23,400 nucleotides of DNA. Source: a virus. Its lineage: Duplodnaviria; Heunggongvirae; Uroviricota; Caudoviricetes. Position numbers and translations under genes: made by a program. The stretch lies in IMG/VR virus record IMGVR_UViG_3300034072_002212, positions 158,417-181,816 of that record; one strand, written 5' to 3'. Positions 2,942 to 22,354 of the stretch are shown here, piece after piece; position 1 is the stretch's first letter, and each line of letters opens with the position of its first letter. Below the pieces are notes generated by a model, which was not told where the DNA came from, made no database searches, and worked only from the letters and a program-made list of their open reading frames with translations.

Positions 2942-2986
2942 TATTTAGTGGGGGAATTAACCATGTGGTTAATCGTCCGATAAGTA
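2942..2986. promoter_or_regulatory. Back-to-back late-type promoters sharing a central palindrome
   Basis: Minus: GGTTAAT(2962-2956)-N8-TAAATA(2947-2942). Plus: GGTTAAT(2967-2973)-N7-TAAGTA(2981-2986). Palindrome ATTAACCA-TG-TGGTTAAT at 2956-2973. Resembles the T4 late TATAAATA box, and a gp55-like gene is in the window. Confidence 0.6.
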
Positions 2987-3849: not shown

Positions 3850-4073
3850 GGCTCTTGGGGACTCCACCTGAGGAAATTCCCTATATCCTCCAAGAATATG
3901 TGGACGACGCAAGGGCCCTAGAGAAACAGTTGATCCAGATTGCGTTCTACATGAGGGGCGGTTGCCCACTGGATCAGGCCTACCGGCTTACAAACAGTCA
4001 GAGAAAGAACTCTCTGGCTTTCATTGAAGAGAACATCGAGCGCACTCAGAAGAGTGGCATCATGATGCACTAA
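3840..4073 (+). CDS. gp51-like hub assembly catalyst; probably expressed as a -1 frameshift extension of the upstream ORF
   Basis: FFRLRLL...IAFYMRGGCPLDQAYRLTNSQR...FIEENIE. No convincing own ATG/SD. The frame is -1 relative to the gp26-like ORF, across T_TTT_TTC at 3837-3843. Confidence 0.6.
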   Translation, partial: FRLRLLGTPPEEIPYILQEYVDDARALEKQLIQIAFYMRGGCPLDQAYRLTNSQRKNSLAFIEENIERTQKSGIMMH

Positions 4074-4450
4074 AGCGTGCCGTGCTCTAGATAGATGCCG
4101 GCGAGGTTGGAGTCACGACGGACATGGCGAAGCTCAAGATCAAGACCCTGAGAGATCTCCTTGAACTGTTTGAACAGGTCGGCAAGCAACTCGTTATTGA
4201 TCTTCCACGCGCCAGAGGCTTGTTGGATAACGAGATTACTGTCGCCGAGAATGACACACTTCTGAATGCCATTGTCTTTGGCCCAAAGGACAGCCCAGAC
4301 GAAAGCTGACCACTCAGCCACATTGTTGGTTCCATGGCCCAGGTCCTTCATAGTGAGGGCTTGGGCCTTTTCGCCGTCACGGCAGATCACAATACAGGAA
4401 CTCATCTGTCCTGGATTGGGTGAGCAGCCGCCGTCAAAGTAGATCTTCAT
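4070..4450 (-). CDS. rnhA: Ribonuclease HI (short, archaeal/Ty1-like type)
   Basis: IYFDGG-x-x-x-NPG, TNNVAE, GDSNLVIQQ, WKI, HVRRDSN. Three catalytic acidic residues (D, E, D) are present; the fourth Asp position reads NLAG. Confidence 0.88.
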   Translation of the reverse strand: MKIYFDGGCSPNPGQMSSCIVICRDGEKAQALTMKDLGHGTNNVAEWSAFVWAVLWAKDNGIQKCVILGDSNLVIQQASGAWKINNELLADLFKQFKEISQGLDLELRHVRRDSNLAGIYLEHGTL

Positions 4451-4456
4451 GTCCTG

Positions 4457-4486
4457 ATTCTAACTGATCCTGACCCTATGAGTCAA
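4457..4486 (-). promoter_or_regulatory. Sigma70-like promoter giving a probable leaderless RNase H mRNA
   Basis: TTGACT(4486-4481)-N18-TAGAAT(4462-4457), then 6 nt to the ATG at 4450. Confidence 0.55.
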
Positions 4487-4507
4487 CCAGTCATGGAATT
4501 GTCAACC

Positions 4508-4799: not shown

Positions 4800-5548
4800 A
4801 CACTGGTTGAACTCTTGCTCCATATCGTCCAGCCACACTGACTTCCCCCGTTCCCGGGAGAAGATCAAATAAAAGAAGAATCAGGGGATTCACACATTAT
4901 GACTGGCGTGGACAGTTCAGAGGATCCTAGGTCTGCCATTATATCCTGCACCTTTTCAGTGCTCACTGCCGCTTCTATGTACTCGGTCTCCAGCTGGAGT
5001 ACCTTTCTACACAGGACGGTCGGTAGTTCGTTACACTACCACTCAACAACTCCATTGCTCACGCCAGCGGCTCCGGAGTCTTGCTCGCCTCTTTTCAAGG
5101 CGAGTCTAGTCTTTGACTAGGGCGTCCCACTGTTTGGCCAGTTTGGGACCTGCCTAGATTTCCAGGACGTTGCCGAAGCCATCTCCAGACCATTCCTAGG
5201 TCCGTTGAAGTTCCTCTGGGGTTTAAGAGTCACTGAGGGTGTGGTAGCTTCCCTCTATCTCACTTTCCCAGCCCGTGGTCGCCGCCCGATACAGCGCAAC
5301 TTGGGGGTCCGAGGGCATGATCTGCCGCTCTACTGTCTCTGTCATTCTCATACCTAGCCAACCAAAAGCTGATAAATAGGTATGTCAGGGACGGTTATTT
5401 TGCTCGGGTGTTTTTGTGTGGTAACGAATATTTGAGCTTGTGGAGCGTTCTATTATAGGCCCCGGTTGGACCTAGTGTCCTCCGGGGCTTCTTTATGATT
5501 ATTTTAAGTTTCGTAGGGGCTATAAAGTAGGTTCGCGGAAAACCTCTT
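4800..5548 (-). ncRNA. Candidate large structured non-coding RNA (family unknown; ends approximate)
   Basis: No credible ORF. More than 10 stems. On the minus strand: GGAA (4854-4851) and UUCG (5177-5174) tetraloops and several G-U pairs. Long-range helix 5218-5186 with 4935-4918; pseudoknot 5067-5060 with 4910-4903. TAAATA box at 5559-5554 points into it. Confidence 0.6.
5457..5495 (+). terminator. Hairpin plus U-rich tail (plus-strand intrinsic terminator candidate)
   Basis: AGGCCCCGG-tt-GGAC-ctagt-GTCC-t-CCGGGGCTT followed by CTTTATGATTATTTT. Confidence 0.4.
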
Positions 5549-5553
5549 GCGGG

Positions 5554-5572
5554 TATTTATTCGCGATAAGAC
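5554..5572 (-). promoter_or_regulatory. Late-type promoter pointing into the non-coding tract
   Basis: Minus strand GTCTTAT-N6-TAAATA, similar to the GGTT(T/A)AT-N7-TAAATA sites upstream of structural operons. Confidence 0.5.
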
Positions 5573-5612
5573 GCCCTGGCGTCCCGATTCAGCTACATCT
5601 GAGATCGATCTG

Positions 5613-5632
5613 AGGGGCTCCGAAGAGCCCCT
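5613..5632 (-). terminator. cUUCGg hairpin immediately after the TnpB-like stop codon (terminator or RNA processing/stability stem)
   Basis: Minus strand AGGGGCTC-TTCG-GAGCCCCT, 2 nt after TAA. No U-tract follows. Confidence 0.45.
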
Positions 5633-5634
5633 TC

Positions 5635-6462
5635 TTAGTAGGCTCGCTTCTTCATCGTTGCGAAAATGCGACCAGTCTTTGGCTGCTCAACGTCCACATA
5701 CTTGATCAAGTATGGTACCTGACTATACTTGATGTCAACAACCCAGGGGTCCTGCGCGGTAACTTCTACACCAGGTTGCTGGTGAACGAGTAGCAGGTTC
5801 CAGTGATTGTTGTTCTCGAGGTTGTGGCCCTGGATAACGAGTGGGTTCTCGCTGTAAGGATGGTAGATCTCAGTGAGATCACGGTCGCTGTAATAGTAGA
5901 CAGCGTTGAGGGCCGAACGAGGAATCTGAAGGTGCCGCTTAGTCACCATGTCATGCTTGACGAGTAGGTCGATTGGCTTGCTGTAGAGGTCCTCTTCACC
6001 AAACGCTTTGTCATTGCGCTTGATCAGCTTCGCGCTTTGGTCCTTGTAGAATTCGAGAATCAAACGAGCCATATTCCGGCGGACAGTTGCGTGGATCATT
6101 GCCGGGGATGCTGCGATGCTCATGATGTTGAACATTCGCTCATTGAGGAAACGCTCACCCTTGGTGTCACGTCCAACGAGCATCTTGCGATGTTTTTCCA
6201 AGTGCGCTGGGAGCTCAACGTCTTCCTTGGCCCGCTCATAAGACTTGATGCTTTTGCCATCTTCGGCAAGGGCTTCCCAGAGGCTTTCCCAATCCTTGTG
6301 AAGTGCGAGGAGCGTTTCAGGGAAAGTGCGGGCACGAGGACCGAGCCCTTCAACCAATGCGTTATAGTAACCCAGTTCCTGCTTCATGAACTCCTTGAGC
6401 CGGATCTTATCCGATGGGCTCACGTCGACCATCACAGTTAGGTCACGAACTTTCTTATCCAC
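5635..6462 (-). CDS. TnpB/Cas12f-like WED-REC protein lacking the RuvC nuclease domain (putative RNA-guided nucleic-acid-binding protein)
   Basis: GTG start with AAGGAG SD. The segment order matches TnpB N-terminal halves: beta strand RDLTVMVDVS, helix ...ELGYYNAL, helical REC, IHATVRRNMARLILEFYK, KRHLQIP, EIYHP, NLLLVHQ, PWVVDIKY. No GIDxG RuvC-I motif or Zn ribbon follows. The CDS itself is secure; the family call is by pattern only. Confidence 0.55.
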   Translation of the reverse strand: MDKKVRDLTVMVDVSPSDKIRLKEFMKQELGYYNALVEGLGPRARTFPETLLALHKDWESLWEALAEDGKSIKSYERAKEDVELPAHLEKHRKMLVGRDTKGERFLNERMFNIMSIAASPAMIHATVRRNMARLILEFYKDQSAKLIKRNDKAFGEEDLYSKPIDLLVKHDMVTKRHLQIPRSALNAVYYYSDRDLTEIYHPYSENPLVIQGHNLENNNHWNLLLVHQQPGVEVTAQDPWVVDIKYSQVPYLIKYVDVEQPKTGRIFATMKKRAY

Positions 6463-6530
6463 GCTTGGCTCCTTTGTTGTCTGATAACCATGCGGTACGA
6501 GCCCACTCCATGTCTATATTCTGGTGAGAA

Positions 6531-6564: not shown

Positions 6565-7104
6565 ATGACTAGCCGACAGAAAGCCAAGGGTAACGCATGG
6601 GAGAACGAGATCTGCAAGTTCTTCGGTGAGACTCTGGGTGGCAACTTTCAGCGCGTTCCCAACTCGGGCGCATACATCGGAGGCAAGAATGTCTACCGCA
6701 AGGAGACGCTCTCTGAGGGTCAGGCGCGTGCGGCTAAGGGCGACATCATCCCACCCGACGATCTCCCCAAGCTGAACATCGAAGCCAAGAATTATGGCGA
6801 CATTGCGTTCCATCAGATCATCGACGGCAAGTGCAAGCAACTCGACACTTGGATTGATCAGACCGAGGAACCTGCAGACGCGGATGACTTCTCGATGACG
6901 ATCTTTAAGATCTCGAGGACCTCCAGCTGGGTGGCTTTCAAGGCACAGTTCCTTGGAGAGTTCGACATGACGGGCCTATCCTATGTGACGTACCGCAAGG
7001 CGTTTGGAACACCCGAAGCTTGCGATTACATCGTGGTCACGTTCAAGCCATTCTTCGAACAGAACAAGGCCGCGGCGCGCAAACTAGGTGGCGCTGAAAA
7101 TTGA
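6565..7104 (+). CDS. Holliday junction resolvase-like PD-(D/E)xK endonuclease
   Basis: KAKGNAWENEI, RVPNSGA, GDII, IEAKNY fit the Hjc/T5 D14-like pattern (KG-x-x-x-E...SG...D...EAK). Confidence 0.8.
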   Translation: MTSRQKAKGNAWENEICKFFGETLGGNFQRVPNSGAYIGGKNVYRKETLSEGQARAAKGDIIPPDDLPKLNIEAKNYGDIAFHQIIDGKCKQLDTWIDQTEEPADADDFSMTIFKISRTSSWVAFKAQFLGEFDMTGLSYVTYRKAFGTPEACDYIVVTFKPFFEQNKAAARKLGGAEN

Positions 7105-22323: not shown

Positions 22324-22354
22324 ATTAACCACGCGGTTTATCACCCACTAAATA
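22324..22354 (+). promoter_or_regulatory. Late-type promoter with upstream palindrome
   Basis: ATTAACCA-CG-CGGTTTAT, then N7-TAAATA(22349-22354). Confidence 0.6.

Follow-up and report, generated by a model that had tools for sequence, protein, structure and literature searches.

A family of phage proteins with the predicted fold of the TnpB/Cas12 recognition lobe and no RuvC domain

Introduction

TnpB proteins of IS200/IS605 elements and their Cas12 relatives share a recognition lobe that is followed by a RuvC nuclease domain. In ISDra2 TnpB, the WED domain (residues 1–12 and 117–176) is a seven-stranded oligonucleotide-binding (OB) barrel, the REC domain (residues 13–116) is inserted between strands β1 and β2, and RuvC begins at residue 185 (PMC10097598). 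In a census of TnpB and Cas12 proteins, inactivated and C-terminally trimmed derivatives all keep RuvC (PMC10691335). Here, a gene encoding a 275-residue protein was analyzed, located at positions 5635–6462 of a 23,400-nucleotide stretch of DNA (hereafter the window) from a tailed virus, positions 158,417 to 181,816 of IMG/VR record IMGVR_UViG_3300034072_002212. The protein has the predicted fold of the WED–REC lobe and ends where RuvC would begin. To our knowledge, every described TnpB, Fanzor or Cas12 member, including the 'dead' ones (TldR, Cas12k, Cas12m and dCas12f), keeps the RuvC fold, and no description of a TnpB-fold family devoid of RuvC was found in the full text of the literature.

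The window is the end of the 181,816-bp record (G000), which is about 39% complete. It comes from a jumbo phage of the T4-like type; the genomes of close relatives measure 417–465 kb and are 90–100% complete. The clade carrying the gene is known from metagenomes only.

Results

The gene is intact and preceded by a strong ribosome-binding site, as a preliminary description made from the sequence alone had stated. It starts with GTG at 6460–6462 and stops with TAA at 5635–5637, and in the family alignment the homologues start at the same position as the window protein. AAAGGAG or AGGAG is retained upstream of the gene in loci L001–L007.

5635–6462, minus strand: gene for the 275-residue WED+REC-fold protein (open reading frame, family alignments, AlphaFold2 model, fold matches, dN/dS)
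6469–6474, minus strand: Shine-Dalgarno AAGGAG, 6 nt 5' of the GTG, read from the sequence

An AlphaFold2 model built on a 27-sequence alignment reached a predicted local distance difference test score (pLDDT) of 85.6 and a predicted template modeling score (pTM) of 0.82. It consists of a strand at residues 8–12, helices from 16 to 147, six strands between 177 and 245, and a basic, low-confidence tail; a second model had the same order of elements. The models thus show the hallmark of the TnpB/Cas12 recognition lobe, namely a WED barrel of the OB type, made of seven strands, that receives a helical REC domain between strands one and two. The preliminary description had matched the protein, segment by segment, to the generic TnpB pattern, and each of the segments tested falls on the corresponding element of the model: LTVMV is strand 8–12 (WED β1), SDK...YYNALV lies within helix 16–46 (the first REC helix) and VRRNMARLILEFYK within helix 125–147 (the last one), and KRHLQIP, TEIYHP, WNLLLVHQ and PWVVDIKY coincide with strands 177–181, 196–200, 223–227 and 240–245, respectively. 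The roughly 30 residues beyond the last strand, where neither RuvC nor a zinc finger had been seen, correspond to the basic tail of low confidence and contain no cysteine.

The match to TnpB and Cas12 that had been proposed was found with the predicted models, both by Foldseek and by exhaustive structural comparison. In the Foldseek search of the PDB, essentially all of the first 36 matches were Cas12n, Cas12p, Cas12f, Cas12g, Cas12k, TranC and TnpB structures, the best with an E-value of 5e-3 and a probability of 0.96. When two independent models were compared exhaustively with the PDB, the top 25–27 matches were all N-terminal lobes of Cas12, TnpB or Fanzor. In BFVD, the best Foldseek matches after two members of the family itself were viral 'transposases' of the TnpB and Fanzor types. 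The structural matches always span the N-terminal WED+REC lobe and halt at the RuvC boundary. Taken with the domain limits of ISDra2 TnpB, this indicates that the phage protein amounts to a complete recognition lobe that ends at the lobe boundary. A feature search of the ESM Atlas gave clusters of rotifer DUF8422 as the nearest (score 0.93), an unverified lead.

Sequence methods gave a different picture. Pfam showed no match at E ≤ 1 for any of 140 family members, PF12323, PF01385 and PF07282 included; PHROGs showed none for the window protein or the 140 members; profile searches of PDB sequences returned only noise; and hhalign against E. coli InsQ and a 29-sequence IS609 TnpB profile (shallow, effective number of sequences 2.2) gave a probability of 0.1%. 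The relation to TnpB is therefore one of fold. Of the resemblance to the TnpB scaffold first proposed, the fold match proved significant, whereas the motif-level likeness is not statistically significant by itself. Such a situation is compatible with an ancient split, with a free-standing ancestral lobe or with convergence. Convergence, or a likeness too remote to inform on function, would allow a role unrelated to nucleic-acid recognition, for instance a morphogenetic one, since a gp26-like baseplate gene always adjoins the gene. We regard this as quite improbable: the absence of a sequence link speaks for it, but the family is basic, with a median isoelectric point of 9.4 and a net charge of +9.

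Nothing in the protein corresponds to the nuclease half. It stops about 30 residues past the last WED strand, leaving no RuvC domain with a D-E-D triad, original or derived. The window protein has no cysteine, and two CxxC motifs were found in none of the 140 members. The features that define TnpB, RuvC and the zinc finger, are thus absent; the family is not a TnpB and shares with it the architecture of the recognition lobe. A split TnpB with RuvC encoded elsewhere was excluded, because PF01385 is absent from G000 and from the genomes of five relatives (G001–G005), four of which are 90–100% complete.

The family proved to be large and uniform in length. A word-indexed search recovered 46 relatives of 264–297 amino acids, and an exhaustive HMMER scan of 1.84 billion representatives yielded at least 173 clusters (50% identity) at E ≤ 1e-3. 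All 150 members listed from the 173 clusters have at most 345 amino acids, full-length ones mostly 240–310, so that the homologues are similar in length to the window protein and are not full-length TnpBs. A search restricted to longer proteins of the family found no C-terminally extended or RuvC-fused form. It returned one entry of 484 amino acids whose extra 209 residues are N-terminal and whose C-terminus is unchanged; this is an N-terminal over-call. No homologue was found with three family members as tblastn queries in 50,697 GenBank phages, or in PHROGs. One homologue 73% identical to the window protein (P0020) comes from a metagenome-assembled genome assigned to Candidatus Obscuribacterales, where it is annotated as a hypothetical protein on a 1.1-kb contig; this may be a hint at the host or a binning artefact.

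Between the window and seven related phages, the proportion of differing synonymous sites (pS) is 0.67–0.86, indicating saturation, that of nonsynonymous sites (pN) is 0.17–0.26, and the ratio of their substitution rates (dN/dS) is 0.06–0.13 wherever dS could be computed. The gene is under strong purifying selection, in agreement with what the preliminary description had put forward as a check. These data refute a recent truncation or decay of a full-length TnpB into a pseudogene. The fold alone would suggest such an origin, but at least 173 diverse clusters have the same length and C-terminal motif, dN/dS does not exceed 0.13, neither a RuvC remnant downstream nor PF01385 in the genomes was found, and the locus is single-copy, syntenic and without transposon ends, which makes truncation hardly conceivable. 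The claim that loss of RuvC in an intact gene would constitute a distinct architecture can accordingly be upheld: the gene is RuvC-free, intact and selected, although it need not descend from a TnpB through loss of RuvC.

Two motifs stand out as the most conserved: the first REC helix carries ELxYYN, and KRHxQ lies on the first WED strand past REC. Residues E29, N34, K175, R176, H177, Q179, W240 and Y251 are near-invariant, and K175, R176 and H177 are conserved at 90–96% among 140 diverse members. In the TnpB strand equivalent to that of KRHxQ, Q121, T123 and N124 contact the target-strand phosphate and the transposon-associated motif (TAM) (PMC10097598). Judging from the topology, KRHxQ and ELxYYN would lie where TnpB touches the TAM and the first phosphate of the target strand.

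The genomic context was analyzed in 30 loci recovered from viral contigs, in which proteins down to 20–30% identical hold the same slot. The order of genes is Mre11-like (339 amino acids), Rad50-like (591 amino acids), PDDEXK_15 (about 170 amino acids, usually divergent), the WED+REC gene and a gp26-like baseplate gene. In the window the neighbors are a gp26-like baseplate protein, RNase HI, a PD-(D/E)xK nuclease, a radical-SAM protein and the Rad50-like and Mre11-like gp46/gp47.

6565–7104, plus strand: PD-(D/E)xK nuclease gene (PF24608, Pfam E 6.7e-24), divergent, the usual upstream neighbor
4070–4450, minus strand: RNase HI-type gene (Pfam RVT_3 and RNase_H), past the non-coding stretch

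The PD-(D/E)xK gene is likewise the upstream neighbor in L008, L016 and L030, and in L023, L028 and L031 a SegE-type GIY-YIG homing endonuclease takes its place. The RNase HI gene is a neighbor in the jumbo clade only: it is present in L001–L007 and missing from the slot in distant loci. No transposon features were found: G000 contains one copy in its 181 kb, the slot is fixed across the 30 loci, and the surrounding genes serve phage replication or encode baseplate proteins. The gene belongs to the backbone of a large, uncultured clade of T4-like phages, in which it is inherited vertically in one copy and is not mobile.

Such a stable position bears on a possible role as an anti-defense decoy, by which the phage lobe would soak up guide RNAs of host Cas12 or TnpB, or occupy their protospacer-adjacent motif (PAM) or TAM sites. 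In its favor, the protein is phage-encoded, only the binding lobe is retained, and phages carry Cas12-type proteins, with Cas-lambda and Cas-phi among the fold matches. A backbone slot held through 20–30% identity under strong purifying selection is unlike the fast turnover of anti-defense islands, however, and the fold is equally near all Cas12 subtypes, so that a decoy appears very improbable.

The context also yielded observations of a different nature. GIY-YIG genes, SegE-like or LEM-3-like, stand in the PDDEXK_15 slot at L023:2283-3305, L031:2256-3335, L028:2899-3399 and L014:2701-3432. At L019:44-2890, the Rad50-like gp46 homologue has 948 amino acids with inserted LAGLIDADG and Hom_end domains, resembling an intein or homing-endonuclease insertion. 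The palindrome-like sequence TAACCAYGYGGT occurs three times in the whole 181-kb record, always within the window (2958–2969, 6485–6496 and 22326–22337), and one copy falls in the interval that separates the WED+REC gene from the divergent PDDEXK gene.

The DNA downstream of the gene was analyzed for RNA elements. A region of about 250 nt that follows the stop codon, on the same strand as the gene, is common to all eight near relatives and includes the block CTACTTTATAGC. The elements of this region and of the non-coding stretch beyond it are the following.

5614–5631, minus strand: hairpin GGGGCUC-UUCG-GAGCCCC, directly past the stop codon, without a U-tract (fold prediction)
5585–5611, minus strand: 27-nt block AGATCGAUCUCAGAUGUAGCUGAAUCG, forming an 8-bp hairpin with the loop AUGUAG, kept in all eight near relatives
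5554–5559, minus strand: TAAATA box, T4-late-promoter-like, pointing downstream, kept in seven of the eight relatives
5459–5488, minus strand: covarying two-step hairpin GCCCCGG..GGA...UCC..CCGGGGC (helices 4 and 5), in all eight near relatives
4835–5180, minus strand: large non-coding RNA core, EGFOA-like part, type A only (window, L001, L004 and L006)

The first hairpin retains its structure with an altered sequence in seven of eight relatives. The 27-nt hairpin always lies about 25 nt past the stop codon of the WED+REC gene, once per genome (about 465 kb), with one UA pair replaced by AU in L001 and L004, a compensatory change; a search for its pattern found it in the contigs of six relatives only, one copy each. 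In helices 4 and 5, five pairs are changed on both sides. For the hairpins overall, 96.8% of cells pair, compared with 29–51% when the partners are slid, and eight pairs change on both sides. The TAAATA box, which reads TATAAATA in L001 and L006, is a putative promoter. Within the window no tRNA and no Rfam match at gathering level were found; the EGFOA-like core scores 34.8–37.5 bits, just short of the gathering score of 37.7 (RF02955). Positions 4835–5180 are 82% identical in nucleotides to L001 even though synonymous sites are saturated, and the four type A copies of the core are too alike to inform a covariance model. In three genomes that are 90–100% complete (417–465 kb), the sole EGFOA-like match is located 600–700 nt downstream of the gene.

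These elements suggest that the protein might be one half of a nuclease-free, RNA-guided system, in which the lobe would bind a downstream same-strand RNA as TnpB binds ωRNA. Candidates for this RNA are the conserved 3' element of 250 nt and the large EGFOA-like RNA, alone or together; the RNA would lead the complex to complementary DNA, where it could, for example, seed an R-loop for the neighboring RNase HI or PD-(D/E)xK nuclease. Covarying same-strand elements past the stop in all eight near relatives, including a single-copy hairpin, and the solitary EGFOA-like match 600–700 nt downstream argue for such a system, as does its single counterpart in L033, a distant 296-kb phage. There, a 1.28-kb gap free of open reading frames (L033:4389-5670) follows the homologue, and the only EGFOA-like candidate of that genome lies within it on the same strand (4940–5044); its position is suggestive, but at 20 bits it is not significant against all Rfam families.

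Other comparisons point in the opposite direction. The proteins of L003 and L006 are identical and their DNA is 94% identical up to the 27-nt block, but unrelated past it: from position 4877 onward the two loci contain unrelated modules of about 1 kb, with an EGFOA-like RNA in type A and an open reading frame of 150–165 amino acids in type B, as in L002, L005 and L007. The RNA core is absent in L002, L003, L005 and L007. Since an identical protein is encoded with and without the core, the large RNA is a swappable module and not an obligate partner, and a guide RNA encoded in cis throughout the family is not supported. The 27-nt block marks the point where the likeness of L003 and L006 ends, as at a mosaic junction. 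An apparent RNA core in L002 and L007 came from an nhmmer model that included L003 and was circular; a model of type A alone showed that only the first 200 nt or so are shared. The profile that included L003 also gave a second, weak and provisional match outside the window, at G000:C1:31808-32049 (19 bits, E 1.8e-5).

In the window clade and in L033, more than 1.1 kb past the gene is free of open reading frames, but in most lineages a cis RNA would find no space. In L016, L020 and L021 an intrinsic terminator and then a convergent gene come past the stop codon, and in eight lineages the next gene encodes a conserved protein of about 90 amino acids.

L011:4838-5134, L013:4846-5133, L019:4393-4677, L022:4396-4686, same strand: gene for the ~90-residue protein
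L023:4395-4673, L028:4357-4623, L030:4288-4542, L031:4293-4586, same strand: gene for the ~90-residue protein

This protein was found in smaller T4-like phages and is missing from the genome record of the window. It has an FFPK motif on the N-terminal side, a basic stretch and then ...LW..(V/I)G....; it belongs to no clear Pfam family, as four of the five members tested gave no match and that of L028 only a weak one below threshold. The RNA elements of the window clade were not detectable near other distant homologues. Structured same-strand elements are thus found next to the gene in the window clade, with an EGFOA-like RNA in part of it, and none in most lineages. Nor was a guide-target match seen: when the 1.18-kb non-coding stretch was compared by BLAST with the available 181-kb record, one match of 17 nt appeared, the rest being at chance level. 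This exact repeat (window 4482–4498 and G000:C1:59507-59523) overlaps a sigma-70-like −35 box upstream of the RNase HI gene and is probably a shared promoter element. Finally, in TnpB it is RuvC that binds much of the ωRNA scaffold (PMC10097598), and the phage protein has no RuvC. We consider an RNA-guided system unlikely. To the same low degree we credit a broader version of it, in which the stand-alone lobe would load a cis RNA for nuclease-free DNA recognition in the jumbo phages at least, leaving cutting or priming to the PD-(D/E)xK nuclease and RNase HI, or would be related to a free-standing module that was fused with RuvC into TnpB.

The same hairpins could instead be substrates. Cas12a contains a metal-independent RNase site for pre-crRNA in its WED domain, and by analogy the Lys-Arg-His cluster might make the phage protein a structure-specific RNA binder or processor, acting for instance on the hairpin past its own reading frame. 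The 90–96% conservation of K175, R176 and H177, the compensatory changes in the hairpins past the gene in the window clade, and the late-promoter-like TAAATA box, which implies a long downstream transcript that might need processing, would fit this activity. Against it, the hairpins are specific to one clade whereas the KRH motif is family-wide, and the genomic context is one of DNA metabolism; this possibility is no more probable than RNA guidance.

Discussion

The explanation favored here, to which we give somewhat better than an even chance, is that the family represents a free-standing WED+REC recognition lobe that binds DNA or structured nucleic acid independently of a guide and serves replication or recombination. 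From the fold, architecture, conservation and context documented above, we infer nucleic-acid binding and the process served. The lobe has no RuvC, no TNB domain or zinc finger, and no nuclease half elsewhere in the phage. As a basic, non-catalytic protein, it would bind nucleic acid through the cleft between WED and REC, whose center would be formed by the near-invariant KRHxQ strand, where REC passes into WED, and by the ELxYYN helix. While phage DNA is replicated or recombined, this cleft may grip DNA that is duplex or branched, or a structured RNA, and no obligatory guide RNA would be encoded alongside the gene.

Several observations are in line with this proposal. The family is basic and its conserved KRHxQ strand appears equivalent to the strand with which TnpB contacts the TAM and the phosphate. 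Rad50-like, Mre11-like and PDDEXK_15 genes are neighbors across loci whose proteins are only 20–30% identical. The terminator and convergent gene in L016, L020 and L021, and the unrelated modules of L003 and L006, argue against an obligatory cis RNA. Other points weigh against the proposed binder. As no sequence-level homology to TnpB was found, the common fold may be of great age or a product of convergence. Backbone synteny is no proof of a functional link with gp46/gp47, given that the baseplate gene is equally adjacent. The K/R/H cluster could be catalytic and not serve binding alone. The covarying hairpins and the single-copy 27-nt hairpin of the window clade fit an RNA partner, at least there. 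In addition, the phages and their hosts are uncultured.

A large, ancient and strongly selected phage family consisting only of the recognition lobe implies that the lobe can function as a unit of its own, and bears on the origin of TnpB, by fusion of modules or by loss of a lobe. It also provides a natural scaffold of very small size (about 260 amino acids) for recognizing DNA or RNA, and gives a fold to a backbone gene that had lacked annotation in many uncultured T4-like and jumbo phages. Should the RNA partner be real, it would supply the first protein context for orphan EGFOA-type RNAs.

In comparison with EGFOA RNA (RF02955), the RNA core downstream of the gene in part of the jumbo clade is alike in scoring just below the gathering threshold, but its size far exceeds that of the model (108 positions) and it has no fixed link to the protein. 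For EGFOA RNA itself, cryo-electron microscopy shows oligomers only (bioRxiv 10.64898/2026.07.01.735769).

Compared with IS200/IS605 TnpB (ISDra2 TnpB, 8h1j and 8exa; ISFba1 TnpB, 8iaz), the phage protein lacks RuvC, TNB and the C-terminal domain, as well as any signal of Pfam PF12323, PF01385 or PF07282. Its gene is single-copy, syntenic and outside any transposon, with no demonstrated ωRNA, and its REC domain is longer, at about 130 amino acids compared with 104 in TnpB. Cas12f (AsCas12f, 8dzj; Un1Cas12f, 7c7l; RhCas12f, 9nzp), compared together with the natural dCas12f (9n9c), has a zinc-finger insertion and a RuvC lobe, acts as a dimer on a tracrRNA–crRNA (trans-activating CRISPR RNA–CRISPR RNA) pair and is encoded in CRISPR loci, none of which was found for the phage protein. 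Fanzor2 of mimivirus (9b0l), with an active RuvC, an ωRNA and mobility, is also unlike it.

TldR is a protein of TnpB length with a mutated or trimmed RuvC and an adjacent promoter-targeting guide RNA, a combination that the phage family does not show, the RuvC fold being wholly absent from it. The family nevertheless resembles TldR, Cas12k and Cas12m, which are exapted, non-cutting members of the superfamily that act by binding, are immobile and have conserved neighbors (PMC10691335). Whereas these proteins keep the RuvC fold, mutated or C-terminally trimmed, and use a guide RNA, the phage protein dispenses with the entire NUC lobe.
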